Assembly (NCBI GenBank): GCA_918797485.1
Contig: CAKKNE010000002.1
Span: 1,302,001-1,366,000 of the forward strand
Direction of reading: 5' to 3'
Length of the DNA: 64,000 nucleotides
Source of the DNA: Pelagomonas calceolata
Taxonomy: Eukaryota
Below the pieces are notes generated by a model, which was given only the letters and a program-made list of their open reading frames with translations, had not been told where the DNA came from and searched no databases. This document shows positions 1,488 to 62,902 of this stretch, piece after piece; position 1 is the stretch's first letter; the number at the start of each line of letters is the position of its first letter. A program made the position numbers and the translations under genes.

Positions 1488-1511
1488 GCTAGCGTAGATA
1501 AAGACACTAGC
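1488..1511 (+). promoter_or_regulatory. Bipartite CTAG intergenic motif
   Basis: GCTAGCGTAGATAAAGACACTAGC between divergent genes. Confidence 0.6.
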
Positions 1512-1598
1512 TCACAGTGCACTCGACCCAAAACGTGCTACAAAGGCTGCCCACGCGCAACGTACGCACCAATAAGTGCGATCAGGCGGCACAGGACA

Positions 1599-2573
1599 AT
1601 GCTGGATGGTAATCATAGCAAGAAGCATCGCGTGAGGACGACGCCGGTGAGTCTTCTGCCGGGGGACCGCAAGGAGCGGCTCTGCGCCATGGCCGCCGAG
1701 GCCAGGGAGAAGCTTCGACCATGGGCGCTGCAACCGGCATCGGGCGTGAGCACGTTCAACCGGCTTTACATGGCGCTCGGCGAGCAGGAGAGCGTGGGCG
1801 GACTGCTGCACATCGCATCACTTGGCGCGGACGGAGGCGATGTGACGGAGGAGCACATCGACGCGTTCCTTGAGGAGAGCAATGCGTTCTTCGATGGCGT
1901 CTTCCACACGGTGAACCAATTCGCGATCGTCGCTGCCCTCACTTTTACCATCTCCGTGCCGCTAGCCGTGTACAACCTGGACGGCATCGAGACGTTCGGG
2001 ACGCGGGACGCGGCCCTGGGCGGCGACGGGAGCCCGGCGTGGTATCGGGCCTGGCACGGGCCGCGGGCGCAGCACGCCTGCCACTGGGCGTCGTGCTGTC
2101 TGATCTCCCTGTCGGTGTACTGCAGCTGGGAGGCCATCTCGCGGTGCTTCATGCTCATTCCCACCTATAGCCTCTACATGCCGGACATGGAGGCGAGGCT
2201 TCGATTCTTTATGCTCGCCCCGGCGTCCTGGCGTCTTCCGCTTGGACGGGTCGCGGCGACGACGTCGGCGCGTCGTCTCGAGACCCACGCACGCCATCGC
2301 CGCAAACGCAGGCTTCACTACGATCAAATCATGTGGGTCTGGCCCTACACGTGGGGGAGCGGGTGTCTCCTGCTGTTGGCGTTGCCGTTCCTCGGTGCCC
2401 GAATTAGTCCGGTCGTGTCTATGTGTACAGCCATGCCCGCGGTCGGTGCCATTCGCATGATCAAGTCGACGTGCTGGAAATGGGGGAATATGTCGGGAGA
2501 TTTCCAACACGAGCTCGCGAAGCAGCTGCTCGCCGCTGACGACAGTTCGGGCGGGGAAAAGGCCGTAAGCTAA
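1599..2573 (+). CDS. Multi-pass membrane protein, tandem paralog A (exons 1599-2212, 2312-2573)
   Basis: Clearly similar to 2743..3606 (SLLPGDR..RLCAMAAEAREKLR.W). A 99-bp segment absent from the paralog is bounded by GC...AG. Confidence 0.75.
   Translation: MLDGNHSKKHRVRTTPVSLLPGDRKERLCAMAAEAREKLRPWALQPASGVSTFNRLYMALGEQESVGGLLHIASLGADGGDVTEEHIDAFLEESNAFFDGVFHTVNQFAIVAALTFTISVPLAVYNLDGIETFGTRDAALGGDGSPAWYRAWHGPRAQHACHWASCCLISLSVYCSWEAISRCFMLIPTYSLYMPDMEARLRFFMLAPASWRLPLGRVAATTSARRLETHARHRRKRRLHYDQIMWVWPYTWGSGCLLLLALPFLGARISPVVSMCTAMPAVGAIRMIKSTCWKWGNMSGDFQHELAKQLLAADDSSGGEKAVS
2213..2311 (+). other. GC-AG intron (99 bp, in-frame, stop-free), degenerate introner
   Basis: Removal gives LRFFM|LHYDQI, which aligns with paralog LRFFMQDHKEI. 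Contains the ACGCCATCG motif and ends AAACGCAG. Confidence 0.75.
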
Positions 2574-2574
2574 T

Positions 2575-2595
2575 CTAGCGTATCGACACACTAGC
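2575..2595 (+). promoter_or_regulatory. Bipartite CTAG intergenic motif (variant)
   Basis: CTAGCGTATCGACACACTAGC, ~150 bp upstream of paralog B. Confidence 0.5.
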
Positions 2596-2742
2596 TGCAG
2601 CGCCGGGTCGACTCAAACAGCGCGGTGTGCTGTTGCTGCTGCCGAAGCGCAACGAACGCGACGCAGGGATACTCGCACGGTCTAAAAACGCGCGGCCAAG
2701 GCTGCCCGCGAGCAATACGTGCGATCAGGCGGCTATCACACC

Positions 2743-3606: not shown

Positions 3607-3895
3607 TGCTGATTGAGGCGTTCCAATCGTGGGTAAGGGTGTCGCGAGCCCTCACCAACGCGTCCACAGGCTTCACTAGCGCGCGCAGGCACTAGCACAA
3701 CGCCAATCTGCTCTCACAGCGGCGCGTCGAAAAACGCCTCGTGCGGCAGCCCGCAGGTGCCACAAGCGCGCCCTCCGGCAGCCTCCGTGCCCCTACGCTG
3801 CGGCGCAGGCAGCCCCGCCGCGACAGCGCGCCACAACGGCCTAGCGCCCCCAGCGAAGCGCAGCGCAGCTCACACCGACGCAGCAGCGAAGCCCC

Positions 3896-4822: not shown

Positions 4823-4860
4823 CTGTAGAAGGCGTAAAGTCCAAAGAATCACAGTAATAG

Positions 4861-6304: not shown

Positions 6305-6476
6305 CGTGTGGTGTGAGGTCAAATGACTCCTCCAAGGCCCCTGAGCCTCTGTGCCACACCACAGCGCGCACAGCTCACGTGGCTGGCTGCGTCGCTAAGA
6401 GACGGCCAGAACCGAACGACCGATGCCCAACTGGGCCCCCAGCGGCCGCGCTAGCTCAGCTGCAGAGTCGGAGCTT

Positions 6477-6498
6477 GCTAGTGTCCTATTACGCTAGC
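6477..6498 (-). promoter_or_regulatory. Bipartite CTAG intergenic motif
   Basis: GCTAGTGTCCTATTACGCTAGC between divergent genes. Confidence 0.55.
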
Positions 6499-7757: not shown

Positions 7758-8657
7758 CTAGGGCTTCCCGAAGAACCAGGCGGCAGCAGCGGTCGCGGCC
7801 GCAACCGCGAGCTTCTTCGCCTTGGAGGACTTCTTCACGCCAGCTTCCGCGGCGACGACGTCCTTGACGGCCGCCTCGGCCTCCTCGGCGGCCTGGGCCG
7901 CCGCCGCGAAGGCGTCCTCCTCCTTCTTCTTGGCCACCGCGTCCTTCTTGAGCAGCGTCTGCGCGGGCGCGGAGATCGTCGGCATCGTCGGCGGGCGCGC
8001 GGCAACAGGTTTTGATGGTGTGATCACGGGCGCGGGCTTGCGCGCCGGCAGGGGGTCCGCGGGCGCCGGCGCCGGCGCGGGCGCCGGGGCGGGCTCGGCC
8101 TTCGCGGGCGCGGGCGCCGGTGCCGGCGCCGGGGCGGGCTCGGCCTCCGCGGGTCCATCCTCCCGGGCGTCCGCGTCGGCGTCCGCTGATACCTTGGGCC
8201 GCAGGAACGACAGGAACTTCTTCGGCGCCGGCTCGGCCGCCGCCGCATCCGCGGCCTCCGCGGCCTCCTCGGCGTCCGTTTGATTTTTGCGCCAGGCGGC
8301 GAGACCGCCGCCGAGCGCCAAGACGACCGCGTAGGGCGTGATGTCAGGGGCCGCGCCGCTGCTGGTCGCGACGGGCCGCGAGACCGGTCGCGCGACGGGC
8401 GCCGGCGCCGGCCGGCGCGCCGGGGCGGCCGGCCGCGACACGGGCGCCGGCGCCGGCCGGTTCGGCGCCTTTTCCGCCATGGCGTCGGACGTGTCGTCCG
8501 GCGCCCAAGCCTTGAGCTCGTCGCGCATGGTCGTCGGGTTCTGGTACACGGGGAAGTCGCCTCCTCTATAGACCTTGACGCTCTCGCGCGTGAAGGAGCC
8601 GGGCAGCTGGAAGGCGTGCGCCGCGGCGGCCGCCCAGAGAAGGGCGCGCGTCGACAT
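7758..8657 (-). CDS. Pro/Ala-rich hypothetical membrane protein, probably plastid-targeted
   Basis: Signal peptide followed by AHA|F (ASAFAP-like); two hydrophobic segments. Confidence 0.65.
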   Translation of the reverse strand: MSTRALLWAAAAAHAFQLPGSFTRESVKVYRGGDFPVYQNPTTMRDELKAWAPDDTSDAMAEKAPNRPAPAPVSRPAAPARRPAPAPVARPVSRPVATSSGAAPDITPYAVVLALGGGLAAWRKNQTDAEEAAEAADAAAAEPAPKKFLSFLRPKVSADADADAREDGPAEAEPAPAPAPAPAPAKAEPAPAPAPAPAPADPLPARKPAPVITPSKPVAARPPTMPTISAPAQTLLKKDAVAKKKEEDAFAAAAQAAEEAEAAVKDVVAAEAGVKKSSKAKKLAVAAATAAAAWFFGKP

Positions 8658-8851: not shown

Positions 8852-8875
8852 GCTAGACGCCAGTAAGACACTAGC
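8852..8875 (+). promoter_or_regulatory. Bipartite CTAG intergenic motif
   Basis: GCTAGACGCCAGTAAGACACTAGC, ~200 bp upstream of the ATG at 8657. Confidence 0.6.
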
Positions 8876-10636: not shown

Positions 10637-10659
10637 CTAGTGTCTTACAGGACGCTAGC
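10637..10659 (-). promoter_or_regulatory. Bipartite CTAG intergenic motif
   Basis: CTAGTGTCTTACAGGACGCTAGC between divergent genes. Confidence 0.65.
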
Positions 10660-10874: not shown

Positions 10875-12026
10875 ATGGCGTCCGCCGCACAAATCGCCGC
10901 CGCACAGAAACTCGCCGACGAGATGGCGGCGGCGGCCGAGGCCGAGGACTCGGACGACGCGCCGCTCGAGTCGCTCGTAACCGTGACGAACAACGGCGCC
11001 GCCGACCGCGATGCGAGCGACGACGAGGTCATGCCGACGCCGAAGCGCCGCGGCCCGCCGACCGACGAGGATCTAGCAGAGGCCCTCGACACGGACCTCG
11101 CGGCCAGAAAACCGCTGCCGGACTTTAGGAGAGACGGTCCGAGGGTGGGCGAGACCATCCGACGCAAGGTCGAGCGCCCCACGGGCCCGGCCTGGGCCGA
11201 GGGCAAAATCATCGGTTATTTGGGACCGGACGAGAGCGATTTTGTGGACGCGAACGGCGCCAGAGCCGCGTTGTATCGCGTCCGCTACGAGAGCGGTTTA
11301 CGGGAGTTGGTGGGCGACGAGGAGGACTTGGAGGAGTGGGAGGTCAACGACTCGTCGGCCGACCGGTCGCCGCTCGACGAGTTCGGAAGGCCCGCGAATT
11401 GTAGTGACGGCGACGACGGCGAGGCCCTGAGCAACTGGGCGCCCTTCACGCCGCGCGCCGCGCCGGCGCGGGCGCCAACATCAATGCCGCCGCGCCGGGC
11501 CGTGCCCGCGTGGGCGCCGCTCGACGCGCCGCCGCCGCCGCCGCGGCCCGAGCCGCTGTCGCCGGGCCGGCGGAAGAAGAAGCGGCCCCTGTTTGATGAT
11601 GACGACGCCTCCGCCGGCTCGCTCGAGGCGGAGCTCGCGGAGCGGGGCCGCCGGATCGTCGAGCGGACTCGGCCGACGGTGCGCGACGCGGGGAGCGACT
11701 CCGAGGAGGACTTCGTGCCCGGCGCGCTCGACGTGGAAACGCTCCGCGCGATGGGCCTCATAGCCGGCGCCGCCCCGCCGGTAGCGCCGGCCTATGCCGT
11801 CGTGGTGCCCGCGCCGCCGCCGCCGCCGCCGCCGCCCGACGAGGCGCGGCGCCTCGCTGCGGACCCTTCCATAGACCTCCGGGAGGCGTATCGCCGCGAG
11901 CAGGCGTCGCGAGCGCCGGCCGTCGCGGCGCCGGCCGTTGACGAGGACTCGGACGATAGTGACGACGCGCCGCTCGAGTCGCTTATCACCGTGAGGCGGC
12001 GCGACGACTCTAGTGACGACGACTAA
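10875..12026 (+). CDS. Low-complexity protein with a Tudor-like (PTM/DIR17-like) domain
   Basis: 'G.I..Y....LYRVRY....GDEEDLEEWEV'; acidic and Pro-rich flanks. Confidence 0.65.
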   Translation: MASAAQIAAAQKLADEMAAAAEAEDSDDAPLESLVTVTNNGAADRDASDDEVMPTPKRRGPPTDEDLAEALDTDLAARKPLPDFRRDGPRVGETIRRKVERPTGPAWAEGKIIGYLGPDESDFVDANGARAALYRVRYESGLRELVGDEEDLEEWEVNDSSADRSPLDEFGRPANCSDGDDGEALSNWAPFTPRAAPARAPTSMPPRRAVPAWAPLDAPPPPPRPEPLSPGRRKKKRPLFDDDDASAGSLEAELAERGRRIVERTRPTVRDAGSDSEEDFVPGALDVETLRAMGLIAGAAPPVAPAYAVVVPAPPPPPPPPDEARRLAADPSIDLREAYRREQASRAPAVAAPAVDEDSDDSDDAPLESLITVRRRDDSSDDD

Positions 12027-12027
12027 A

Positions 12028-12979: not shown

Positions 12980-13003
12980 GCTAGTGTGTTACAGGACGCT
13001 AGC
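12980..13003 (-). promoter_or_regulatory. Bipartite CTAG intergenic motif
   Basis: GCTAGTGTGTTACAGGACGCTAGC, ~140 bp upstream of the ATG at 12843. Confidence 0.65.
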
Positions 13004-16100: not shown

Positions 16101-16944
16101 CACTAATTCCGCGACGGACCCGGGCGCCCCGCCGCCCATCCTGTGTGGAAATCAACACTGAGGCGGGTGAAGTCACGCGTAGCCTCTCTCGCGCTCGTGT
16201 CGAGTTCGCTCGACGCGGTCCGAATGGCCTCAAAATCGAAAAAGAAACCACCAACTTCATCAGAAGATGGAGACGACGCGCGCCGATGGCGTGAAGGCAC
16301 CGCGGCCGTCGTGAAGGTTTTTTTTCTGCGCCGCGCCCTACAACGCATCCTGGAAGCCCAGGTACGTCGAGATCCAAAGCCAGTAGACGCCAAAGTACCA
16401 CACTACACCTAACCACCCGAGCAGGCCCGAGTACGGGATGTCGAACTCGGCCGCGATGATGGAGTCTGGCGCCGTCGGGCCGTCGCGCGCCTCCTCCAGG
16501 ACTTCTGGGGGCGTCGGCGCCCACTTCTCCCGTAAGTCGAGAGAGACGAGCGGCAGGATCGCGTTGATGCCTTTCTCGTACCTTTGTGGAAATCAAACAG
16601 TGAGATAGGTCGCATCGATGACGTAGAATCTCCACGCCATCGAGCAGACGAAGTCGCAATGTTGCGTCGATGGCGTGAGGCGCTTGATTTGATTTCCACA
16701 CAGCCAAGTGCAGCGACAGGAACGTTACCTCTACCGCGACGTCTACGTCGTCCGCGCTCGCGGCGCCTACCTTGCGGTAGTAGCGGCCCTTGACATAGCC
16801 CTTGAGCCACACCCGTCCTTCCTTCCACCAGTTGTGGAAGGTGGCGAAGCACACCCAATTGACGACGACGACGAGCCGCTTCGCCTTGGTCACTGGGTTC
16901 AGGATGATGGCCCAATTTATGAGAATCAGCCAGTTGAACGACAT
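13173..16944 (-). CDS. Large multi-pass membrane protein with two Tudor/SH3-like segments (exons 16944-16712, 16581-16366, 16140-13173; true start uncertain)
   Basis: The 988-aa ORF extends upstream in frame across two TIR-bearing introns (FLSL|YEKG and IST|MGGG). Confidence 0.6.
16141..16365 (-). mobile_element. Introner-derived intron with one intact TIR (donor inferred)
   Basis: Perfect CTGTGTGGAAATCAA at 16141 supplies the AG. The GT at 16365 restores the frame. No clear second TIR or TSD. Confidence 0.55.
16582..16711 (-). mobile_element. Introner intron (GC-AG, 130 bp); element 16582-16703
   Basis: TIRs CTTTGTGGAAATCAAA and TTTGATTTCCACACAG. The GC donor lies exactly 8 nt outside the TIR; the TSD has diverged. 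Confidence 0.8.
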
Positions 16945-17641
16945 CTTGCGTGGAGGCGTTCAGCGCGAGCGTTGCGCGCGGTGGCGCAGATGTGTGTCGC
17001 GGCGTCGCCCGCCGCGGTCTCGTAACGCGACTGCGTCCGCAATGCGGCGCAGCGCGCGGCGATGCCCGTCGTCCCGGCGCGGCACGTAGCAGAGGAGCTC
17101 TCCGTCTCGCGGTGCGAGCGGTCGCCGCGTCCCAGCGCCGCAGCAAGGGCGATACTGCTCGGCGCCGCTGCTTCGGCCCCGGTTTTGCAGCGCAGCGCGT
17201 CGCTGTGCCGTTAAGTGCCCGTTCGAAGCTGAGAGGTGCTTTGCACAGCGCGTCGCTGGCTCTGGTGAGTCCAGCGCCGCGTTTGACCAATCCACGCTTC
17301 GATAGCAAGGCCAATAGCAGTACCAGTGCGCTCCATGGCGCAAAGCGGTGTTTGCTGCTACGCATTTTTGAGGAGAAGTACAAAACACTAAAGCATCACT
17401 ATTAACAGTTCAGATTTGTTCACGCGCGTATGTACGCGCAGCAAATTCACTCGGTGCGTCGGTGAAACTGGCTGGACACAACCCGCACGCCCGGTGCGTC
17501 GTGCTTGAGTGCTAAAACGAGGAATGGCGTGCTAGCAGGTACTTTGCGAGAAATCCTTGCGCCCACTAGCCTCGGCTTGCCGCTCGACATCGATAGATTG
17601 CAAGCTGGTTTTTTTGCATCGATCGTGTCCCCCACACCGCC

Positions 17642-18178
17642 ATGTCGGGGCTTAAAATCACCAACAACATAACGAACCTCGACGGCCCGGGCCCGCCGGT
17701 AGTCCAAACCGACTTCGAGCCGCAGGGCGACACCGAGATTAGGCCGTCCTCGATGCCGTGACCATGAGAGTGAGCGCGGAGGCGCGCCCCGACGGTACAC
17801 CCACAGGAATACGACACGGACAAGGGCGACGGCAAGCTCACGATGAACGCCGCGCGCCGCCTGATCGGCGGTCTACGCCGCGGATACAGCCTGGCTGAGC
17901 TCGAGGTCGCGGCCGACCGCGCGATGAAGGACGGCGTCCGCTACGCGTACTGGCTCGCGCAGCCGTACCGCCGCGGCCTCTCGGACTCGCGGCCCACGAT
18001 CCGCGCCTACCGCGAGGCCTACGCGACGCTGAAGGACTTGCCCGGCCACGCGCGCGCGGGCCAGTTCGGTGCCGTGAACCGCGTCGTGGGCGCCTGGGAC
18101 GTTTACCGGCGCTACCCCTTCACGATCTGCGGCGGTGTCCTCATCGCGGCGGCCCCCTTCCTGTCGAAGGGGAATTGA
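17642..18178 (+). CDS. Small hypothetical protein (probable intron ~17699-17806)
   Basis: ORF 17843..18178 extends to acceptor CCCACAG at 17806; an upstream ATG exon fits at phase 0. Confidence 0.5.
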
Positions 18179-18229: not shown

Positions 18230-19550
18230 CTAATGATAATAGAAGTCCTCGAAGATGTGCAAGTCCGGGTGTTCTTGGGCGAGCCAGCTCCACGAGAAGC
18301 CCTGGCCGCACGTTTCCGTGCCGAGGTCGAGGATCCGGAGCGTCGTGATCGCCGCGATGGCGGGCGGGAGAGAGACGACGTCCGCGTTGCCCGCGACGAC
18401 GAGCAGCACGAGGGCCCGGAGCTCCGCGAGCCACGCGGGAAGACCTTGGAGGCCCGCGTCGCGGAGCGTCAGCTCGCGCAAATGGACGAGGCCGCGGACC
18501 GCTTCGGGAAACGGGGCGAGCGGGTAGCCCTGGAGGTCGAGGGCCCGGAGCGCCCGTGGGTCCGCGAGCGCGCGGTCCAGCGCCCGGTTGTTCTCGATCG
18601 CGTCGCCCTCGAGGCCCGATTGCGGCGGCGGCACCTGTGTGGAATACAAATTCCAAGGCCATAGCCTAACTCACTGGTTGAGTTCCACACGGGCGGAACG
18701 GCGCGCACGAGCTTGAGCCGGATCAGCGGCATGCCGCGCAGGGCCTCGGCGAAGGCCGGGATCGAGACGTTCGTCGCCGCGAAGGCGCGGAGGCGCAGCT
18801 CGTCGAGCCACATCGGGCACGGCCGCCAGCGGTGGTCCCCTATGTCGAGCTCCGCCAGGTGCGGCAGCCCGCGGACGTGGTCGAGATTTGAAGGCCCGTA
18901 AACGTGGCGAGCGATGCGCAGCGTCGCTGGGAGCGGCGGAATATCTCCGACCGGCCGCGCGAGCTCGAGCTCGACGAGGCGCGAGAACCCCGCGAGCCAG
19001 GGCGGCGTCCGCACCGTCGGTCCCAGCGAGAGCGCCCGCAGGTTCGGCAGCGCGCGGACCGCGTCGGGCACGGCGTCGGCGTCGCGCGATGCGTAGATAG
19101 ATAGGACCTCGCAGGTCCGGAACCGGTCGGCGGCGTCCACCGGTGGCGACCTGTGTGGCACCGTCGCGTCGATGAAGCGCCGTCAAACGTCGCTTTCCGC
19201 GCCGGCGGCGACCAGTGGGCGAGGAGCGTGAGGTCCTGAACGTCGTAGTTAAGTGCGGCCCGAAAGGCCCGCGCCACCGCCCGCAGCGTGCCGATCGCCT
19301 TGAGGCGTTCCTGCGTCCGTCGCGACTTCGCGCCCGCCGGATCGTGACTCCCGCTGTTGCTCCCGTCCAAGTCCCACGTCCCGCTCACGCACAGGGCCTC
19401 CTCGACGTCGTACCCCCGGGCCGCCGCGTCCAGGCGATGCTCGAGCGGGACGGTGTGGTTCAGGGTGAGGGGGATCGCGGCCGTGCGCGTGAGGTACTTC
19501 ACGAGGAGCGGGACGATCTTCTCGGCACGCTCGACCAAGACATCGCTCAT
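18230..19550 (-). CDS. Leucine-rich repeat protein (exons 19550-19213, 19150-18700, 18634-18230)
   Basis: LxxLxLxx repeats; three ORFs join in frame across two introner introns. Confidence 0.8.
18635..18699 (-). mobile_element. Introner intron (GT-AG, 65 bp)
   Basis: CTGTGTGGAATA...GAGTTCCACACG; TSD GGCGGCAC/GGCGGAAC (7/8). Confidence 0.88.
19151..19212 (-). mobile_element. Introner intron (GT-AG, 62 bp), decayed TIR
   Basis: CTGTGTGGC...TTTCCGCGCCG; TSD GTGGCGAC/GCGGCGAC (7/8); spliced product reads HWSPPVD. Confidence 0.85.
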
Positions 19551-19962
19551 GGTGCGCGTTGGGAAACACGGGTTCTCCACCGCCGAAGTATCCTCGCGCC
19601 GCAAGATTATCAACTCACTTTCAGCTGCAGACTGCTGGCGCTGACGATCCTCCTGGGTGTTAAGTGCGAACCAACGATGAGTTTGGCGCAGTGATCAATG
19701 GCTAGGCGCGTATATCTGGTCTGTGGCTTGTGAGCTCTCGCAATATTTTGGAGCCCTAGGCGACGTTTGGCTGCACAATCGCGGGCCGGGCGCGCTGCGA
19801 CTTGCGGCCCCCGGCCTCAAGCTCCTAGAATCACACAGCAAACGCAGCCTGCGGCCGCGCAGAGGCACTCACAAATGCCCTTGTTGGTCACCCCGGGGAG
19901 CCGATGAAGCCAACATCCCCTTGAATTGAAGCCGCCGGCTCGACGCAATCACAACAAAAAAC

Positions 19963-21953
19963 TTAGTCTGAACCAGAAACGACGTCGAGGCGGCAGCGCC
20001 CGTCCAACCCCAGCGAGTAGCGGAGCCGCGGCCCGGCGTCGAAGCGCACGAGGCACCGGCTTTCGGAGCCCTCGAAGCCGTCCTCATAACGAACGACGAG
20101 GCCGACCGCGTCGGCCGCGCAGCTCAGCGACACCTCGCCCTCGATGGCCCGGGCCGGGAACCCGTCGGACAACTTGAATTCCACTATCTCGCGCTCCGCG
20201 ACGACGTCGCACTCGTACTCATCTAAATCAATGGGAACGAGCTCCCGCCGCGCCGCGCGCCACGCCGCGGCCGCCGCTTTTTGATCAACCCCGCAGATCC
20301 GGTCCGGCAGCGGCGCGTACGCCTTTGACAGATCAGAGGACCGGATCGCGACGGCGACGACGACCGCGCGACCCGGCGCGACGCGCACGCGCCGCCCCGC
20401 GAAGAGCTCCCTCAGTAAAGCGCATCGCCGCCAGAAGCGCAACGCGCAAGCGACGGGGTGGCCCTCGAGGTCGTGGTAGAACGGCTCGCCCGTCAGAACA
20501 ATAACTTCAGCGTCGGTCGAGGGCGCCTCACTCAAATCAGAATATATGGAGAGGGCCACTTCGAAGCGCCTCGCCACATTTGATGCGTGCAGCGCGTCGC
20601 GCGCGTCGGCGCACCAGGCCACCGCATTATCACAGCCCGCGCGCAGGCACGCGAGCGCGCAGATGGCCCCGTCGCCGACGTCCCAGACTTCTGCGGTGTC
20701 GTCGCCCCTCAAACAAGACGCCGCGAGGGCCCGGTGGTCGCTTGGTAACGACGCGAGGCGTCCTGTGGAATATCCCACATGTAATCCGCAAGCACATAAA
20801 GCAGCCGCCGACGTCACGAAGCCGGCGTCGAAGAAGACGTCGAAGACGATGTCCGTGTCCGTGTGCGTCGCCTTCAGGCTGAAGGGCACGCCGGGGCCGA
20901 TGTCGAAGGGCGCGTCCAAAGGTTGGGCCATCTGCCACCAGTGGTCCTGGAAGTCGTCCGCGTCCTCCCAATTCGACACGCCCTCGCCGAAGCCCAGGTC
21001 CATGCGCCAGCGGTAGCCGACGGCGTCGACGCGGCCCCGTTTTTGGACTTGTAGATCGACCTTCGCGCCGGCATGCGCGCCGCGCGCCGGCGGGCTCGAG
21101 AAGCTCAGGTCGAGGACGCGCACGTAGGGCGTGAGCCGCCTTGCGTTACCCAGCCGCGCCGGCGCACACGCCGCGCCGCCCCGGCACCGCTGCCGCCTGT
21201 AGTTGTCCGGGCCCCGCCGTTTCGCGAGCGACGCGTCCTCGAAGAGCGCCGCCTCGACGTACGCACCGCACGGTATGATTGTAGCGTCTTTTGATGCAGT
21301 GCCGCTCGCGAGGACCTCGCGCAGCGTCGGCAACAGGCCCTCTCCTAACAAGCCGTGGTCCGCGAGCTCGCAAACCTGTGCGCAAATCGAGCGGTGACCA
21401 CGCCATCGAGATGAGCGCCGCGACATTTGATTTATGCACTGTCGCCCACCACGAGCGACGCCGGCGTCGGAAGGCTAATAGCGTCGGACCGCGCATTTAC
21501 AATTGTACACCGCTCCTCTTCAAAACCTCCGGCGCGGACGCACGCCGTCGCGACTTTTGACAGAGCGGGCTCCATCTCGCACGCGACCACATGACCTATT
21601 CGGTCCTCTTTGCACAGGAGCTGGGTTAATAATCCAGTGCCGGCGCCGATTTCCAGCGCGACGCAGCCCTCCGGCGCAGCCTCGGCTGCTTGTTTAATCG
21701 CGCGCGCGTAGGCTCGATTACGTTCCGAGTCGTGGAGCATCGCCGCGAGCCACGGCTTGCGCGCGAAGTGCGCCACCGCGTCGTCGCGGTCGTCTTCGAG
21801 CCATCCTAATTCACAATCCTCGTCGAGCGCGCCTCTTAGTGATTGCTCGCGGCCCTCGGCGGCGACGCGGAGGCCGTCCCAGATGGACGTGGCGGTTACT
21901 AGCTTTTCTGGCTGGTGCTCGGTTTTGGTCTTTTTTGTGGGGGATTCGGCCAT
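19963..21953 (-). CDS. PRMT7-like protein arginine methyltransferase, tandem domains (exons 21953-21450, 21375-19963)
   Basis: 'MLHDSERNRAY', 'LEIGAGTGLL', 'CEL.D.GLLGEG' and 'DHWWQ', plus a degenerate second domain. Confidence 0.85.
21376..21449 (-). mobile_element. Introner intron (GT-AG, 74 bp)
   Basis: CTGTGCGCAAATC...TTGATTTATGCACTG; TSD TCGCAAAC/TCGCCCAC (6/8). Confidence 0.85.
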
Positions 21954-22156: not shown

Positions 22157-22175
22157 GCTAGTGTCTATAGCTAGC
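22157..22175 (-). promoter_or_regulatory. Bipartite CTAG intergenic motif (short variant)
   Basis: GCTAGTGTCTATAGCTAGC between divergent genes. Confidence 0.5.
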
Positions 22176-23997: not shown

Positions 23998-24019
23998 GCT
24001 AGTGTCTTTCGGCCGCTAG
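23998..24019 (-). promoter_or_regulatory. Bipartite CTAG intergenic motif
   Basis: GCTAGTGTCTTTCGGCCGCTAG, just downstream of the hemL stop (atypical position). Confidence 0.45.
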
Positions 24020-24498: not shown

Positions 24499-25974
24499 CG
24501 CGACTCGCGAGGAGCGGCGGCGCGCGCGCGTCTGTGTCTCGGTGGCGCGCGGCGCGACTTCAGGGATCTGTCGCGGCGCGTCCCGCGCGACGCTCGCGTT
24601 TTCCAGCCTATTGATGGCCAGTACTCGGCGCGTTTAAAGCCCCCGCAAATTGGGGCAGTGCACGTCGAAAGCGGAAGGGTGGAGGTATCGTTCTAGGCTG
24701 CCCGGACCGATGGGATGAGTATTACTGTGGACTCTCTGGCTTGCTAGTAACCATGTTACGCTAGCTTGGGTCAGATTTTATTTTTGGTGCAAGCAGCTAC
24801 TGAGGCATTATTCGCAACCGCTGGCCAACGCTGCGCTTCTACAAAGCGCAGCTGGACCGCCTGCAAGCGGCGATTGCACGCGTGGCGATTTGTACGCACA
24901 GATGCACGCTGCACCACAGAGCAGCCTCTGCAACAACAAATGCGAAAACGCGACGGCTGACGATGAGCGTGCTCAGAGCGAGCGCAGCGGTGGCGCGTGT
25001 CAGCAAGCCCGCGCCGGGCCGCGAGCTGCACCGGCCGGCGTGAACTTCGCTCCGTCGTCGCTGGGCGCGGCTGGCGGTCTACAAGGGAGAGTTTCTAGGC
25101 CACCAAGCCATGCGCAGAGGTCGGCGCCGCGAGTGCGCCTCGTGGAAGTATCGCGTCCTAGCTTGGTCGTCCTTGGACCAGGTGTTGCTTCGAGAACGGG
25201 ACCGCTGATGCACGCCGCAGACTTCTGCTCCTGCGCGTGACGTGCACGATGTCCTTATTTTCTGCCTCGGAAGTGCACATCAAGTCGACGACGTCGCCAC
25301 AACGCCATCGAGACGGAAAGGTGTCTGTAACAGCGTCTGCTCGATGGCGTGGAAGTTTTAGCAGTTCTGAATATCGTCGATCAAGATCCGCGTCCTGTAT
25401 GTCTTCGCGGCGGCGTCGTCTCGAGGACTGCGTCCGCTCTAAAGGTGGAAGTTGTGCGAGCTTCGTGTCGCGATCTGGTGCCGCCGGGCCGGCTTGTGAC
25501 GTCCTATTTCGACAGCTGAAAGGTCGACGTGCTTAAGGGCGCGCCCGGGTCACGGGCCGGTGGTAAGGCCCGAGGTCCAGTGCATCCTCGGCGACATCGC
25601 GTCCTCGGTCGCCGGGCGAGACGCTCGCGGTTCATGGGAGCGCGCACTCGGCGTACACCTCGGGCCGCGGGACGGCGGCGAAGCTCGTGGAGACAGATGA
25701 CCGCCGCCGCGGGCCGCATCGCTCCACGTCGATGGCCCTGGCCAGCTGGAGCTCCCGCCTTTGTGCGGGTTTCTCTGCGTTTCTCTAGTTCTATGTAAGC
25801 GAAGGCTGCTATTTAGTATGTAGCACTCGCTGGCGTCGTTTGGGTGGGGGATGTACGGTTCCCAAAACGCGGCCGTCTCCCAGGCCACTGAGCCTCGACT
25901 CGCGTCGCGCAGGAGCAGCCCCGGCCGCGCAGCGCATCAATTGGACGCAGAGCGAAGTCGCAGCATTTCACGCC

Positions 25975-30869: not shown

Positions 30870-30892
30870 CTAGCGGCATGTAAGACACTAGC
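30870..30892 (+). promoter_or_regulatory. Bipartite CTAG intergenic motif
   Basis: CTAGCGGCATGTAAGACACTAGC, ~100 bp upstream of the ETFDH ATG. Confidence 0.65.
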
Positions 30893-34361: not shown

Positions 34362-34385
34362 GCTAGTGTCTTACACGACGCTAGC
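34362..34385 (-). promoter_or_regulatory. Bipartite CTAG intergenic motif
   Basis: GCTAGTGTCTTACACGACGCTAGC between divergent genes. Confidence 0.65.
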
Positions 34386-38505: not shown

Positions 38506-38537
<32 letters not shown>

Positions 38538-41342: not shown

Positions 41343-41365
41343 GCTAGCGGTCTGTAAGACACTAG
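41343..41365 (+). promoter_or_regulatory. Bipartite CTAG intergenic motif
   Basis: GCTAGCGGTCTGTAAGACACTAG between divergent genes. Confidence 0.65.
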
Positions 41366-43943: not shown

Positions 43944-44256
43944 CTAACTATATTTTGGTATTATTTTATTAAGTCACTAACAACACGTCGCCATACCCTC
44001 TCGTCGACGGCGTGGGGGCGGTCACGCAGATCTCCTCGCGTCGGCTCACGGCTAGTGCCCGAAGCTAGCGTAAGCCGCTTCGAATCGAGCGCGAAGCTGC
44101 CGCACACGTGCCGCGCCGGCGAAAGGGCTACCACAAACGCGCGCGCCTTGCCTGCTTTGCGTCGTCGCAGTGATCGCGAGGCCCGACTTGTGCCCCATCA
44201 GCGCGCCATCGCCGCGTTTTTTACCCCACCAGGGCTGCCCGGCACGCGTGTCAAAA

Positions 44257-47155: not shown

Positions 47156-47596
47156 CTAGGGTGCGATTTACGCGGAAAAAACGCGTAAGTTACACGTAAA
47201 GCACCGCTACAGGAGATCCCACGTAAAAAACGGCGTAAAAAAGGAGGTATCCAAAAGTCCTTCCAGGGCTCTTCCCGAAGCCGGCGCTAGCGGCCCTCTA
47301 AGACTCTAGCTCGCGATCAGCAGCTCGCAGAGTGTGGCTGCCCCAAACGTTGTCAGAGCCGAGCCAATTGCTAGTTGCATGCTGTTGCGAGCAAGGTGTG
47401 CACTCTAGGTGTGCGCTTATGCGCCGTGCTCGTGCTGCTATTGAGCTGCGTGGCCACAAGGCCTTGTTTAGGGGCTCTGGCTGCGTGTGTGCGGGTTTTA
47501 TAAATAAATGCACGCGTAAATTACGCGTAAATTACGGCGTAAATGACGCTGGACCGTTTCTCACGTAAAGAACGCCGTGCGTAAATCGCACCCTAG
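47156..47596. mobile_element. Non-autonomous hAT-like MITE, 441 bp
   Basis: Perfect 18-bp TIR CTAGGGTGCGATTTACGC. Perfect 8-bp TSD GCGTGACG at 47148-47155 and 47597-47604. Clustered CGTAAA subterminal repeats at both ends. Confidence 0.93.
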
Positions 47597-48744: not shown

Positions 48745-48950
48745 TGTCTTTCTCTCGGTCTCACGCCTACGCAACCGCCCGCGTCTCTTGGCTGCGTTTG
48801 CGCGCTTTACGGGCGCGGGGCAGCGCTATGGTTTTTCACCGGAAGCTAGAGCTGAGCTACTAGGGGCCGGCGCCACGTCGTGGTCGCTACCGACCGTCCG
48901 GGCAGCCGGTCCAGGGCTCTGTGGGCGAGTAGTGGTGCGCCCGGCTGCTT

Positions 48951-48974
48951 GCTAGTATCTTACATGCCGCTAGC
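48951..48974 (-). promoter_or_regulatory. Bipartite CTAG intergenic motif
   Basis: GCTAGTATCTTACATGCCGCTAGC between divergent genes. Confidence 0.65.
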
Positions 48975-52009: not shown

Positions 52010-52030
52010 GCTAGCGGTGTGAGACACTAG
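52010..52030 (+). promoter_or_regulatory. Bipartite CTAG intergenic motif
   Basis: GCTAGCGGTGTGAGACACTAG between divergent genes. Confidence 0.6.
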
Positions 52031-52347: not shown

Positions 52348-52899
52348 ATGGTCTTCTTCTACAAGACGGACCTCATCTACGAGATGCTCCTGTCTCCCCA
52401 ATATTTTGGACCGTCCATGAAGACGCGGATCAAGGACGAAGTAAATAAGCAGGTCGAGGGAAAATGTTTGGGACGGGAGGGGTATGTCATCGCCGTGACT
52501 TCTGTCAAAGATGAAGATGTGGATACCGGAGTGGTAGAATATGACACGGGTTGCGTGGCGGTGAACGTGCGATATGCGGCGATACTACTGAGACCGTTCA
52601 AGAACGAGGTCTTGGACGCGATCGTGGACGACGTGAGTGAATTGGGCGTGTTCACGTCCGTGGGACCGCTGCACATCTTCGTCAGTCGGCACGCGATGCC
52701 GGAAGACCTCCAGAACGGGTTTGATGCGGACTCCGACGCCTGGCTGTCGGATGACAAAGAAGTGGAGATCAAGAAGGCCTGCGTCATTAGATTGCGGCTG
52801 CTGGGCGTAATGTGCGACACGACCCAAATAACAGCGGTCGGGACGATCAAGGATGATTTTCTCGGATTGATCTCGCATCCCGACAACCAGGGCTTCTAA
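52348..52899 (+). CDS. RPB7: RNA polymerase II subunit RPB7
   Basis: 'L.P.YFGP', 'VEGKC....GYVIAV', 'RPFKNEVLDA', 'GPL.IFVS', 'GTIKDDFLG'. Confidence 0.93.
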   Translation: MVFFYKTDLIYEMLLSPQYFGPSMKTRIKDEVNKQVEGKCLGREGYVIAVTSVKDEDVDTGVVEYDTGCVAVNVRYAAILLRPFKNEVLDAIVDDVSELGVFTSVGPLHIFVSRHAMPEDLQNGFDADSDAWLSDDKEVEIKKACVIRLRLLGVMCDTTQITAVGTIKDDFLGLISHPDNQGF

Positions 52900-53133
52900 T
52901 GTTTTTATGACACCAACCGGCGGGCCTGTGACGAGCGCCCGCTCGCCGCGCTTCGCGGCACGCGAAAAAAAAAATACAAGTAATACCATATAGTTTAGGT
53001 TTATGTACCTTGCGGGGTGCGCGTGGATGGCGTCTTGCGTCGACTGTACGCCGTGAATCTCTCTCACGACGGAATTTTAGTCTAGAACGGCCCGGGGGAC
53101 CGCATCAGCATAACAAACACCCATCGGGAAGGG

Positions 53134-53571
53134 CTAGTCGAAGGAATACCTCATCAGCGTATTCCAGTCGTCGCACGATTGCCCTCGGTAGCCCATATTC
53201 TTAAAAAAAGTCGAGTTTTTTTTGCCCCGAGCCCTCGAGGTCGGACGGTCGATCCACGCGACAGAATGAGTGTTATTGGGGTCACACATGTCCAACGTTG
53301 GTTCTAGAATTCGCTCGGCGAAACAACACATCTTTTCGGCTGGCTTCGCGACAGCCTTGGCGGGAGTATCCCAGGTTTTTTCCTCCAGATTTTTAAACAT
53401 ATTTTTTACAAGTCGATCCAGATTTTCTCCAACATTTTTCCGCTTGGCGGAGCATTTGTCGAGTGAAGTGTAACAACTACCGAAGCTATCTTTATATGGG
53501 CATTTTTCGTCGTGTGGACGCTCCTCCGCATTCGCGTACACGCCACGATCGGGGTACTGCGCGGGAGCCAT
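53134..53571 (-). CDS. AT-rich Cys-containing orphan ORF (uncertain)
   Basis: 145-aa ATG ORF in locally AT-rich DNA; no recognisable domain. Confidence 0.3.
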   Translation of the reverse strand: MAPAQYPDRGVYANAEERPHDEKCPYKDSFGSCYTSLDKCSAKRKNVGENLDRLVKNMFKNLEEKTWDTPAKAVAKPAEKMCCFAERILEPTLDMCDPNNTHSVAWIDRPTSRARGKKNSTFFKNMGYRGQSCDDWNTLMRYSFD

Positions 53572-54067
53572 CTACGCCTCCGAGCTCGCACGCCTCGACG
53601 CCGGCGTACAGGCGGTCGCTTTGTTCCACGCGAACTACCAGAACCTTTCGGCGTTCACGCCGGCCATGTCGGACGTTTGGATGCAGTACCACCATGCCGA
53701 ATTCGACAGAGTCGGCGACGACGGCCTTCTGGAGCTCGAGCACCACCTCGCCGGAGCCGGCGTCCAGGTCTGGGAGACGCTCAAGTACGGCGGCACGTCT
53801 CACGGCTTCGCGGATCCGACGAACAGCATCTACGACGAGCGCGCCGCGGACCAGGCCCACGCGACGATGTACTCGTTCTTCAAGGCCAAGATGCCCCCCA
53901 AGGCCGAAGTCGACGACGACACCTCGTGCGAAGATTCCAAGACCTGGCACAAGAACGGCGACCCCGCCAAGGACTGCGCCTGGGTGTCCGAGTGGTCGCC
54001 GCGCTGCCAGGTCAAGGGCGCAGACAAGTCCCTCGCGTCGGAGCACTGCACCTGCGCCTGCCAGTAG
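53531..54067 (+). pseudogene. 5'-truncated dienelactone hydrolase-like fragment with Cys-rich C-terminal module
   Basis: GYCAGA nucleophile motif, 'QYHHAEFD', 'YGGTSHGF'. In-frame TAA at 53471, no upstream ATG and no N-terminal half visible. Confidence 0.5.
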
Positions 54068-55535: not shown

Positions 55536-55559
55536 GCTAGCGTCATGTAAGACACTAGC
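55536..55559 (+). promoter_or_regulatory. Bipartite CTAG intergenic motif (consensus-like)
   Basis: GCTAGCGTCATGTAAGACACTAGC between divergent genes. Confidence 0.65.
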
Positions 55560-57648: not shown

Positions 57649-57671
57649 GCTAGCGTAATGTAAGACACTAG
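57649..57671 (+). promoter_or_regulatory. Bipartite CTAG intergenic motif
   Basis: GCTAGCGTAATGTAAGACACTAG, centred in a 196-bp divergent gap. Confidence 0.65.
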
Positions 57672-59800: not shown

Positions 59801-59890
59801 TGCTTATTTGGTTATTTAATTTTACACCGCGGGATCTTCGCTACCGGGGAGCACAATCATAGAAACAGGGAGCCGGGCTTCGTCCCGGAC

Positions 59891-61198
59891 TCAGTGCGCC
59901 GCGCGGAACCACGCGCCGAGGGGCATGTCGGGCAGGTTGTCCGTGCGGCACGAGGGTGCACTCGGCGCGGAGGCGCATCGCCGCGGCGTCGCGTCGACGA
60001 ACGCCCGGAGAGCGACGACGGCCGGCGACGGCGGCTCGACCGCCGGCTCCGCCGGCGATGACGGCTCGACTGCCGGCTCCGCGACCGCCGGCTCAGCGTA
60101 GCCGTACGTCGCGTTGACAACAGCCGGCGACGGTGCGGTGCCACGCAGCGCTGGCACACCGTGGCCCACGGCGGCAGCCAGGACGAACAGGGGCAGCGCG
60201 ACAGAGCGCGTCCAAGACTTGCCCGCGGCGGCGGCCGGGGCGGGTTCCTCCACGAGGAGCGGATGGGTGCTCGTCGACGTCGCCGCGTCGAGCTCCGCGA
60301 GGAGCGTCTCCGTCGCCGCCTCGTCGAGCGGCGAGTCCGGCATCTCGTGCACCGCGGGAGAAGGGTGCCCGATCTCCACGAGGAGTCGCGAGGGGCACGA
60401 CTCCTCGCGCAGCTTGGCGGCGGCCGCCTGGCGCGCGAGCGCCGCCGGGCACGGTTCGTCAAGCCGTGCAATGAGCCGGTGCAGTGTGCCCGGCGTGGCG
60501 ACGGCGGCGGCGCGAATAGGCGTCAACTCGGACACCGGCGTGAGCGGCGCCGCGGGGTTAGGTGTCGGTGGGACACTTGTGGAGCGCCGCGACCCGGCCC
60601 ATCCGTCCGCGACGCGCAGCAGGTCGGCGAGCGCCGGCGAGTCCGGCGCGTCAGTGTCTTCGTCAAGCGGCGGTCGCGTCGGCTTTTCCGCTCGCGGCGA
60701 GCGCGCCAACGCGGCCAAGCGCCGGCCTTCCGACTGCGCGGCGTAGAGCGCCACGGACAGAGCGCGGCGCGTGCGTTCTTGTTGCGCGAGCTCGTCGTAG
60801 ATCGGCGTGCCCGCGAGGCCCGCGATCGACGGCTGCTCGGAAGCGTAGTCCGGCGGCAGCGACGACGCGCGGCGGGCGCCCGGCACCGGCGGCGGTGGCT
60901 GCGACGACGTGCGCACCTTCCGCGCGCCACGGGCGCCGAAGTTGCGCGGCGCCGGCACGTGCGGTGCCGGCGCCTCTTGCGCCGCGGGCACGGCGGCGCC
61001 GACGATGCGGGGCTTCGTGTGCTCGCGCGACGGCGTCGCCCCGATGGAGCTCGCGCCGATGACGCGGGCGACCGACGGGTGCACCGCGCGTGGCGGCTTT
61101 TGCGCGCCCGAGGGCGCCGCGACGTTGGGGCTCAGCGCGCCCAGCGGCTTGCGAGCGTGGGCGCGGGCGCGCATCGAGCGCGGGGTGAACTCGGGCAT
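59891..61198 (-). CDS. Low-complexity hypothetical protein with one TM
   Basis: 435-aa Pro/Ala-rich ORF with a D-box-like 'RKPLGALSPN'. Confidence 0.55.
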   Translation of the reverse strand: MPEFTPRSMRARAHARKPLGALSPNVAAPSGAQKPPRAVHPSVARVIGASSIGATPSREHTKPRIVGAAVPAAQEAPAPHVPAPRNFGARGARKVRTSSQPPPPVPGARRASSLPPDYASEQPSIAGLAGTPIYDELAQQERTRRALSVALYAAQSEGRRLAALARSPRAEKPTRPPLDEDTDAPDSPALADLLRVADGWAGSRRSTSVPPTPNPAAPLTPVSELTPIRAAAVATPGTLHRLIARLDEPCPAALARQAAAAKLREESCPSRLLVEIGHPSPAVHEMPDSPLDEAATETLLAELDAATSTSTHPLLVEEPAPAAAAGKSWTRSVALPLFVLAAAVGHGVPALRGTAPSPAVVNATYGYAEPAVAEPAVEPSSPAEPAVEPPSPAVVALRAFVDATPRRCASAPSAPSCRTDNLPDMPLGAWFRAAH

Positions 61199-61460
61199 GG
61201 TTTTCTACCGGCTCGCAGGCGTTTGTGGTTCGCTTACAGTGTTGCAGGCGTTCTTGGGAATTTTTCGGCGACGCGCAGCTTTTTGCGCCGACGGTTTCAG
61301 TGGTGCCAGAACCGGTTTTTTGGCGGCCGTAGGCGAACGCGGTGCGGTTAAAGCTGGCAGCTGCAGAGCCTGATATGTCAGGTGGCTGCTGACGGGCGCT
61401 GGCTGTCACAGGGGACCACTGTGCGCCGTAAAGGAGACCAACAGCTTGCAAAATAATTGT

Positions 61461-61486
61461 GCTAGCGGCATGTTAAAGATACTAGC
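61461..61486 (+). promoter_or_regulatory. Bipartite CTAG intergenic motif
   Basis: GCTAGCGGCATGTTAAAGATACTAGC, ~260 bp upstream of the ATG at 61198. Confidence 0.55.
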
Positions 61487-62902
61487 AAGCTATACAAACG
61501 CGACATGCAGCCGTTTGAGTAGCCTTCCGTTCGCTAATGGTCCGAAGAGATCAATGGGACACGTACTGGGGGCTGAAAAAGGAATTTTTTTAATTCGCGG
61601 TGCGGAGGCGGACGATGCCACAGGCCGGCCGCGCCGGTTTAATCCTGTCAATCCCTGTCAAACAGGTCTCCCTGGGGTCGCCTAAGGTCGGTACTATACA
61701 CGTGCACGCGCCTACACCGCAGACGCCGCCGCTTCAAGCATTTTTGGCCGATTTCTCTCAGCAGACCACTCGGTTTAGCCATCTTTTGGCCATGGTTTGC
61801 TTCCAGAGCTCCCCGAGAGCATTAGGCTGCTGCATCGATGGCGTGTGCGGTGTAGGCGCTTACCCACTACCAGACCTACCCCGAGAGGCCTCCAGGAGCC
61901 GATCTGCCACCGAAAAAAGTGTGCAATTTGGGCCCGATAGCACCCGTTCCCGTCAAAAACGTCAATCACCCGAGGGCCCCCAGTAGTCGCCGTAGCGGCC
62001 TCGTCGGACCCCATACTACCCGAGCGATAGTCAATTACAAGTATATGACATCTACACGCCGAGAAGGGTACTTTGGGCTGCCCACGCTCGTGACGTGAAC
62101 ATCTTGATCTGGACCTCGCTTAAGTCAGTCGGTCATGGAACAAACGATCGCGTTATGGTCCATGGTGATGGTACACGGGCTGATGGTCGCAAGTCCAGTC
62201 ATTAAGTCCATTTAAGCAAGATACTGTGGTCGCGAGACCGATGACCCGCGCCGAGCATCTTTGGGTCTCAGAGCAATGTAGTACACAATCAAGCCGGTTA
62301 TCTGGCCCGTCCCGTAACCAAAGCGCCTGAAATGCAAATTTATTGTACAAACCACCGGTCTGGGCCCTTTCCAGTGCCCCGTCTCCGCACCGTCGTCCGC
62401 GGAGAACGGGCAAGTCGGTCGATTGTGAATAGAAGAACGGCGTTATGATCCATCCGGATAGTGTCGTCGCTGATACTCGCATACCCAGGTGCAGTGCCTT
62501 CCTTTGGGTAAACGCGAGGGCGTGGAGATGCTGATTCGCGCGGCTCTAACGGAGCATCTAAAATAAATAGGTAAGTGTTCAATCGGCCTAGATGGCATCT
62601 ACCGACAACAAACGAAACAAAACGAACATAAACTCGGGAGTTGTCTAGTAGAATTCTTCTCCCGCCCTCCGGGCGCGCGCCGTCGGCTCCGGTTCCGTCG
62701 AATTTGTATGAAAACTGGGCTGGAGTTGGTATGATGTACCAACTGGACGGTAGAAGGCGGCGCCAATCGCTGGTGTATTTTGGCGAGCCGCAAGACCTAG
62801 TGATCTAGCGTATCGACATACTAGGAATCCGTATATATATATACTAGTAGCTATTAGCGATTGATATTAATACAAGTATCCTAGTGGCAGCACGACCGGC
62901 GC

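Follow-up and report, generated by a model that had tools for sequence, protein, structure and literature searches.

A two-box motif of about 29 bp in the gene-start gaps of a Pelagomonas calceolata contig, read as a candidate promoter-centre element

A stretch of 64,000 nucleotides of the picoalga Pelagomonas calceolata (contig CAKKNE010000002.1, positions 1,302,001 to 1,366,000; hereafter the window, by which the whole stretch is meant) carries 21 copies of a two-box motif of about 29 base pairs (bp). It can be written aGCTAGCG-gcc-TGTAAGACACTAG-caagc and holds one CTAG in each of its halves, called here box A and box B. The motif is confined to non-coding gaps that hold a gene start and is almost never placed between two gene ends, both orientations toward the gene are in use, and RNA 5' ends lie mostly 3–42 bp from it. 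Its occurrence is non-random, far beyond chance, and is reproduced in independent ocean DNA. With moderate confidence, the motif is read here as a lineage-specific promoter-centre element of a TATA-poor genome, core-promoter-like in its role. A preliminary description of this DNA, made from its letters only, had likewise proposed a general promoter element for one gene or two diverging genes, and this proposal fits the gap statistics, the RNA 5' ends, the flip of base skew at the motif and the use of both orientations.

Anatomy of the motif and tests against chance

The preliminary description had counted about 21 copies, and all 21 were recovered, each no more than 1 bp from where it had been placed. 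When the window was searched with the core 12-mer TAAGACACTAGC, allowing up to two mismatches, 19 matches were obtained, whereas 100 dinucleotide shuffles gave 1.82 on average and 7 at most. Sixteen of these matches belong to the 21 copies, two are lone hits in coding sequence (29598 and 57123) and one is a lone box-B-like site in a gap at about 43970; otherwise box B almost never occurs without box A. The second half is weaker in five copies (2575, 3676, 24743, 44051 and 62805), which keep both CTAGs at the proper distance. A two-box weight matrix picked out these 21 copies in the window and no other site at a threshold of at least 16 bits and 0–1 sites in each of ten Markov shuffles, and at 12 bits or more the shuffles yield 2–8 hits per 64 kb; the matrix test is circular, because the matrix was built from the copies themselves. 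CTAG is under-represented in the window (161 observed against 219 expected from base composition), and 42 of the 161 sit in the 21 copies.

Two CTAGs are present in every copy, as had been proposed, and the distance between them, given at first as about 14–21 bp, was measured as 13–20 bp. A spacing of 18 is found in ten copies, 16 in five, 13 and 17 in two each, and 19 and 20 in one each. Either orientation does occur, with 12 copies on the plus and 9 on the minus strand when the motif is read as GCTAGCG...ACACTAGC. Numbered from left to right, copies 2 and 21 (2575-2594 and 62805-62824) share a variant with spacing 16, the spacer GTATCGACA and a T before the first CTAG, which suggests a sub-type of the motif.

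Public metagenome contigs were scanned for the exact pattern CTAGCGNNNTGTAAGACACTAG, which matches 6 of the 21 window copies, and at least 121 contigs were found to carry it. All figures on these contigs and loci, here and below, hold among the matches listed. The contigs have a guanine-plus-cytosine (GC) content of 0.55–0.70 throughout, the related contigs are all of marine origin, and no locus orthologous to the window was found among them. Over 117 instances, information is confined to positions -3 to +26, with less than 0.12 bit outside and no informative position there that could belong to a partner motif; the element is therefore one discrete word of about 29 bp and not the core of a longer repeat. 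At positions that the search pattern leaves free, an A (52%) and then a G at position -1 (85%) precede the first CTAG, and the spacer carries G/T (73%), C at +7 (81%) and C/A (62%). After the second CTAG the letters C-A-A-g-c follow (C 75%, A 69%, A 73%). The 'spacer' is thus not neutral filling: it is itself read. A further 22 copies on the contigs, which lay outside the pattern selection, show the same consensus, and their spacing runs from 14 to 22 bp, with 18 as the commonest value (12/22). On one contig (L034:3859-4341) two copies stand 440 bp apart and face outward, with box B toward each of two diverging genes; the pair encloses an AT-richer spacer, and one copy is just 20 bp from the ATG of the left gene.

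As controls, a viral collection of 2.9 million contigs gave no pattern match, and prokaryote genomes comprising 596 billion bases gave three, all in marine metagenome-assembled genomes (MAGs); by our own estimate, about four chance matches are expected for 19 fixed bases in a collection of that size. Two of the three loci, L123 in a gammaproteobacterial and L124 in an archaeal MAG, carry two motif copies each at 58–62% GC, and because of the second copy and the same GC they are probably mis-binned eukaryotic contigs. The match in the third (L122, from a 4.1-Mb prokaryote MAG) is the only one there and is probably due to chance; it was excluded from the gap counts.

The motif might also be the functionless remnant of a mobile element, or the footprint of insertions that target open promoter DNA. 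Its two CTAGC cores, a short repeat that is both direct and inverted, could recall a target-site duplication, and the genome does carry mobile, introner-like repeats. However, in all 117 metagenome instances with 80-bp flanks these are unique and show no homology outside the 29 bp. Self-complementarity is absent from the inner 14 bp, so that the motif does not consist of two inverted-repeat stubs, and the consensus is unchanged in the copies outside the pattern selection. An all-against-all BLAST of the loci returned only orthologous pairs and introner-like repeats. In orthologous gaps with diverged flanks, moreover, the motif is kept in place. Some of the contigs are mutually orthologous at 82–88% identity; in the pair L011/L023 the gap is rich in indels and substitutions and the motif forms an uninterrupted conserved block at the same place, and in L015/L074 the entire gap is more conserved. 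The transposon footprint or repeat that had been offered earlier as an alternative is set aside on the unique flanks and the confined information, and we regard a mobile-element origin as highly improbable.

Placement relative to genes and RNA 5' ends

Coding segments were called with a codon log-odds model trained on 16 open reading frames (ORFs), 15 of which have a Pfam hit. By these calls no copy lies in coding sequence (0/21), in agreement with the preliminary description, which had also placed one copy in each 5' gap. The latter claim stands for 10 of the 12 divergent gaps and for 8 of the 11 tandem ones, but fails for the rest, which have no copy; convergent gaps carry a copy in 1 of 13 cases, and the difference between promoter-bearing and convergent gaps is significant (Fisher p = 6e-5). 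By tally, about 27 of the 36 genes with their 5' end in the window have a copy in the upstream gap. The genes served belong to unrelated Pfam families, which bears out the earlier view that the placement is regardless of gene function.

The same element with the same placement is found in related marine DNA. None of 144 metagenome motif hits lies in called coding sequence. Gene calls on both sides are available for 51 of them (28 divergent, 22 tandem and 1 convergent), the other 93 being too close to a contig end, and of the flanking genes 125 point away from the motif and 29 toward it (p = 2e-15). The least biased test was made on contigs of at least 4 kb, counting only gaps without a pattern match and leaving out L122; here a copy was present in 11 of 19 divergent gaps and in 5 of 12 tandem ones, and all 32 convergent gaps were free of it (promoter-bearing against convergent, p = 8e-7). 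An equal frequency in convergent gaps and coding sequence, which had been named beforehand as an outcome that would speak against a promoter element, was therefore seen neither in the window nor in the metagenome contigs.

The coding start lies at a median distance of 164 bp from the motif on the contigs and of about 198 bp in the window. In divergent gaps both sides of the motif are equidistant from their genes. In tandem gaps the motif stands mid-gap, between the 3' end of the upstream gene and the start of the downstream one, and the served gene is faced 18 times by box B and 14 times by box A, window and loci taken together. Across 106 metagenome instances the base skew of the plus strand flips at the motif, with T>A and G>C on its left and A>T and C>G on its right, which is the signature expected of transcripts that diverge from that point.

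The near absence from convergent gaps bears on two further proposals. A terminator or polyadenylation signal was rejected, as a copy is present in 1 of the 13 convergent gaps of the window and in none of the 32 in the loci, and the lone exception has transcription units of its own. A site for some other DNA transaction that favours promoters, be it a replication origin, a recombination hot spot or a targeted DNA modification, would suit a motif that is long, specific and intergenic; the avoidance of convergent gaps, by the same counts, and the closeness of RNA 5' ends argue against it, and we give this explanation little credence. The replication origin, one of the alternatives raised in the preliminary description, is dismissed on density, because one copy per 3 kb is, to our knowledge, far denser than the origins of any known compact genome.

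RNA 5' ends were taken from four stranded poly(A) RNA-seq runs used as raw reads (X21–X24) and from two older runs used as contigs (X1 and X2). Strandedness was checked on Pfam-supported genes, where the first mate is opposite to the RNA strand, and the X1 and X2 contigs were treated as RNA because they are spliced. For six of eight measurable genes the outermost RNA evidence is 3–42 bp away from a copy and may be on either of its sides, that of box A or that of box B; measured from the motif centre, the 5' ends lie at 13–48 bp, similar to the placement of a TATA box, which stands about 25–35 bp ahead of the start site. The minus-strand gene left of copy 5 (8853..8874) has sharp 5' ends at 8811, 8816 and 8822, 31–42 bp away, with 74 of 177 molecules at 8816 in X24. 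To the left of copy 4 (6478..6497) a gene has a 5' end at 6441 (7/19 molecules, 37 bp) and a contig end at 6459 (19 bp), and for the gene to its right contigs start at 6512/6520 (15–23 bp). Contigs of the 5'-nucleotidase gene end at 10619/10624, 13–18 bp from copy 6 (10637..10658). The gene downstream of copy 3 (3676..3695) has an X1 contig start at 3698, at a distance of 3 bp, and the gene downstream of copy 2 has an X2 contig start at 2602, at 8 bp. The two remaining genes start farther away: the gene left of copy 16 (48952..48973) has a sharp 5' end at 48810/48811, at 141 bp (48/116 molecules in X24), and the Rpb7-like gene at copy 17 (52011..52030) has a low-depth 5' end at 52215, for which 185 bp is an upper bound (5/12 molecules). 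At the bin of copy 17 the RNA depth switches between strands. At one 3' end the contigs stop 10–16 bp short of the stop codon, so the true starts may lie nearer to the motif or inside it.

If the motif is a promoter centre, it would be docked by a putative abundant, sequence-specific DNA-binding factor. Once bound, this factor would remove nucleosomes, hold the gap open and serve as the seed of the initiation complex. It would lead RNA polymerase II to begin transcription no more than about 50 bp away, on one side or on both, and factor and motif would together stand where the TATA box does elsewhere. The length of the footprint, the conservation of the spacer and the limited freedom of the CTAG spacing (13 to 20 bp in the window, 14 to 22 bp on the contigs) suggest that the reader has several DNA-contacting modules, as a zinc-finger array or a multi-Myb protein has, or that two readers cooperate. 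The motif is not itself a TATA box: it holds no TATA-like run, and TATAWAW occurs only 12 times in the 64 kb, with almost no match within promoter gaps. A bolder form of the promoter-centre reading is put forward tentatively and with more doubt than trust, namely that a word of about 29 bp and a single putative factor specify most RNA polymerase II promoters, work bidirectionally, replace the TATA box and the initiator, and drive at least one gene resembling those of small nuclear RNAs (snRNAs).

The placement statistics would be the same for a general-regulatory-factor or insulator site. The protein on such a site would hold nucleosomes off the gap and set neighbouring transcription units apart, and might stop read-through as well, with the start itself chosen by other, weaker signals. 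The 5'-end distances varying from 3 to 185 bp would suit such a site, as would the mid-gap position in tandem gaps and the surroundings of the motif, where 6-mer enrichment is weak and chiefly due to A-tracts and a slight dip of GC extends about 80 bp to either side. However, most 5' ends (3–42 bp) are nearer than is usual for yeast factors, and no further signal common to the start sites emerged, whether at a fixed position or in the vicinity. A TGCAGC-like word is seen where contigs end beside copies 4 and 6, and again where the conserved stretch that follows copy 20 begins; it was set aside, as it is not enriched across the 106 metagenome instances. The shorter GCAGC has a modest excess on the box-B side (40 in the first 50 bp against 9–23 per later 25-bp bin). 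The insulator variant also has to account for copy 2 (2575..2594), which lies within the 3' untranslated region (UTR) of the upstream gene: plus-strand molecules end at 2612, 18 bp beyond the copy, and an X1 contig (2312-3588) spans it, so that copy 2 is no roadblock to the RNA that runs through. A regulatory-factor or insulator site is thus a possible but doubtful explanation, and insulator activity may be an added role of the motif.

A signal acting at the RNA level, in a 5' or 3' UTR, on stability, translation or processing, would find some footing in copies 2 and 15, which lie within transcripts, and in the two GCUAGC cores, which are able to pair as a short hairpin. Both orientations relative to the served gene (18 against 14) speak against it, as do the starts of most transcripts just outside the motif and the depth at copy 18 (55537..55558), which is about 2 reads against 4–34 in the flanking genes. 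This is the least probable of the explanations considered.

Several points weigh against the promoter-centre reading itself. The distance to the 5' end is not fixed, with 141 bp (48811) and up to 185 bp (52215) in two of eight genes, and for the gene after copy 3 five molecules have their start ahead of the motif, at 3606. In four of the eight genes the 5' end is based on assembled contigs only, and contig ends are no proof of true starts. A copy is not always untranscribed DNA, because copies 2 and 15 are transcribed through. The gene models are the codon-usage calls of this analysis, with no annotation behind them, and the gap statistics in the loci all rest on the window-trained matrix. The comparison of orthologues is biased and speaks for persistence only, because the motif itself retrieved both members of each pair. 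Finally, five promoter gaps have neither a copy nor a half-site: 16944-17843, 19550-19966, 37014-37989 (Hsp70), 42423-42594 and 52896-53474. In the 975 bp upstream of Hsp70 no motif, no TATAWAW and no strict three-unit heat-shock element was found.

The first of these gaps, a divergent one, has two CTAG cores 34 bp apart at 17532-17569, with box-A-like and box-B-like flanks, in a region (17431-17700) that shows many differences between runs; this may be a split or decaying copy.

Copies in the window and neighbouring features

The individual copies are given with position, strand, CTAG spacing in bp and matrix score in bits. Those in divergent gaps are copy 1 (1489..1510, plus, 18, 35.4), between a minus-strand OsmC-like gene and a plus-strand gene with its ATG at 1599; copy 4 (6478..6497, minus, 16, 36.8); copy 6 (10637..10658, minus, 18, 37.3), with the 5'-nucleotidase gene at its left; copy 8 (22158..22174, minus, 30.2), with the short spacing of 13 and an aminotransferase gene at its right; copy 12 (34363..34384, minus, 18, 39.9), between a WW-domain gene and an OTU gene; copy 13 (41344..41365, plus, 18, 33.3); copy 16 (48952..48973, minus, 18, 39.1), with a SET-domain gene at its right; copy 17 (52011..52030, plus, 16, 29.9), between a methyltransferase gene and the Rpb7-like gene; copy 18 (55537..55558, plus, 18, 37.8), between a lactonase gene and an ankyrin gene; and copy 19 (57650..57671, plus, 18, 38.3), which is 87–89 bp from both start codons. 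Beside copy 16 there is a weak extra copy (48846..48863, plus, 14, 12.7), 35 bp from the 5' end at 48811, with a score within the chance range.

Tandem gaps hold copy 2 (2575..2594, plus, 16, 25.1), the variant with GTATCGACA, 2 bp past the upstream stop codon; copy 3 (3676..3695, plus, 16), the weakest at 16.2 bits; copy 5 (8853..8874, plus, 18, 26.3) and copy 7 (12981..13002, minus, 18, 36.0), both between minus-strand genes; and copy 14 (44052..44068, minus, 21.9), with the short spacing of 13 and a weak box B, upstream of a gene of 1002 codons. Copy 9 (23999..24019, minus, 17, 32.1) lies 58 bp past the stop codon of the aminotransferase gene, copy 10 (24744..24764, minus, 17, 28.6), with a weak box B, in a 1.9-kb stretch without clear coding sequence, and copy 11 (30870..30891, plus, 18, 37.0) 103 bp upstream of the start codon of the minus-strand gene for ETF-ubiquinone oxidoreductase (ETF-QO). 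Copy 21 (62805..62824, plus, 16, 26.6), which shares the variant of copy 2, lies 80 bp past the stop codon of an F-box gene.

Copy 15 (47287..47309, plus, 19, 28.9) is the sole window copy between convergent genes. Its gap is the longest convergent one (583 bp) and has its own transcription on both strands, the copy being covered by RNA on both. The 5' end of the minus-strand RNA is at 47472, and a TATAAAT precedes it by about 27 bp. Almost all plus-strand reads over 47156-47596 carry fixed differences (470/471 at 47173), and 468 of them continue into foreign sequence at 47156; on these two grounds they are assigned to a highly expressed paralogue elsewhere. In the paralogue reads the positions of motif copy 15 are altered.

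Copy 20 (61462..61485, plus, 20, 36.1) is followed, from about 20 bp to its right, by a conserved non-coding stretch (61505-61775, plus strand), which has 80% identity over about 310 bp to L098 (L098:345-612); its first 100 bp or so match L004 (L004:1850-1950), and in both loci the stretch follows a motif copy. It has U-rich runs resembling Sm sites, poly(A) RNA covers it at very low depth, and three compensatory changes of base pairs appear when two sequences are folded together. An Rfam search of 61300-62950 gave no match at E values up to 1. The stretch may be an unclassified gene of small nuclear RNA type. Across the whole window, an Rfam scan at the gathering score and a tRNA scan gave no match, and a known RNA family was accordingly rejected as an identity for the motif.

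The window has a GC content of about 62% and is crowded with genes of eukaryote type, including those for Hsp70, ETF-QO, a cytosolic 5'-nucleotidase and an Rpb7-like subunit, and with proteins that carry SET, F-box, WW, ankyrin and RRM domains. Introns are scarce and short, as judged from RNA joints, and intron-borne repeats are about 200 bp in size. A 201-nt intron at 16140-16340, confirmed by RNA joints at 16139/16341, is an introner-like repeat, and its segment 16209-16306 has a 78–82% match to three metagenome loci. A second introner-like repeat lies at 29324-29502, at the junction of two ETF-QO ORF pieces, with a 72–95% match to six loci. The text of the Pelagomonas calceolata genome paper gives 63% GC, 0.45 introns per gene and an intron-length peak near 210 bp, ascribed to introner elements (PMC9481584). 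The GC of the window, its intron-borne repeats and its marine relatives are consistent with a pelagophyte origin.

The Hsp70 gene is spread over two ORFs that overlap (37866-38708 and 38680-40029), so an intron or a change of frame is implied. A dienelactone-hydrolase-like ORF (53474-54064) covers only the C-terminal half of its Pfam profile (positions 103-215 of 217), has no motif upstream and is without RNA in each of the four runs (depth 0 in the bin 53339-54005), and is possibly a pseudogene or else a silent gene. Reads by the hundreds (823 in X21) connect 8454 with 11913 across six added letters, and loose read ends occur at 8436 and 11930 (segments 8436-8454 and 11913-11930). These joints probably stem from a highly expressed gene elsewhere that holds the same short segments, or else from repetitive coding sequence.

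Comparison with known promoter motifs and meaning

The sites of yeast general regulatory factors (Abf1, Reb1, Rap1) are bound by abundant nucleosome-excluding factors. The motif resembles these sites in that it serves many promoters regardless of gene function and in either orientation, within a compact genome with divergent gene pairs, and the Abf1 site is likewise bipartite with a spacer; as expected of a site of the yeast type, it is present in the promoter gaps of unrelated genes and depleted elsewhere. However, its sequence is unrelated, it is about twice as long (about 29 bp), its spacer is conserved, it occupies a far larger share of promoter gaps (18/23 in the window), and it lies nearer to the RNA 5' ends.

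Animal ZNF143/Staf sites, the snRNA proximal sequence element and CTCF sites are also long (18–30 bp), rich in information and tolerant of orientation. ZNF143/Staf-type motifs are found at TATA-less and bidirectional promoters, and one copy of the present motif, copy 20, precedes an snRNA-like stretch. Unlike the present motif, the animal ones serve hundreds to a few thousand sites in large genomes and no majority of promoters, and we vouch for no sequence similarity to them. The snRNA proximal sequence element, which is restricted to snRNA genes, was rejected as an identity, because the copies precede varied protein-coding genes and only copy 20 precedes a conserved non-coding stretch. On this comparison, the motif appears to belong neither to the yeast-factor class nor to the animal zinc-finger/Myb class, though it would act alike. 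The DRE/DREF, Motif 1/M1BP and BEAF-32 sites of Drosophila offer a further likeness, as they serve broadly expressed, packed and often divergent genes and are an alternative to TATA and initiator; those motifs, however, are short (6–12 bp), with several sharing the work, whereas here one long motif dominates.

The closest stramenopile case is that of the oomycete INR, FPR and DPEP. According to the parts of the source consulted, these are core promoter elements of stramenopile promoters without TATA, with a combined element of 16–19 nt, which lie at or downstream of the start site; well-conserved INR+FPR is found in about 13% of genes, and only INR seems to be present outside oomycetes (PMC3599244). 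As described there, the likeness lies in a lineage-specific core promoter motif, and the difference in that the present motif is upstream of or between starts, in both orientations and in most promoter gaps. Membership of the INR+FPR/DPEP group, which, as far as it is defined in those parts, calls for a single orientation toward the gene, was rejected, since transcripts start outside the motif on either side and its orientation is 18 against 14.

The preliminary description knew of no account of this motif, and none was found in the literature searched, which covered neither supplements nor subscription journals; searches with 10-mers of the motif matched primers only. The words 'motif', 'promoter' and 'intergenic' are absent from the main text, supplements aside, of the Pelagomonas genome paper (PMC9481584), and in the consulted parts of a further paper 'promoter' denotes a T7 primer (PMC4410273).

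The motif is read here as a general promoter motif, unusual in its length and in the share of promoters that it covers. Eukaryotic promoters are usually built of short, degenerate and optional signals, and a single word of 24–29 bp in half to three quarters of promoter gaps would be a promoter code of unusual explicitness. Contigs of this lineage can, in addition, be recognised by the motif, which in this way has exposed likely eukaryotic contamination in two prokaryote MAGs. If the finding is true genome-wide, the motif would allow start sites and the limits of genes to be predicted directly, both for these algae and for metagenomes from the ocean, would provide a minimal and possibly bidirectional promoter for a group with few genetic tools, and would give a handle, through DNA affinity capture, on the factor that organises most of the transcription. 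If, further, a single factor does serve the majority of promoters through this word, a free-living eukaryote, and one of the commonest picoalgae of the ocean, would have a near-universal, sequence-defined promoter code.

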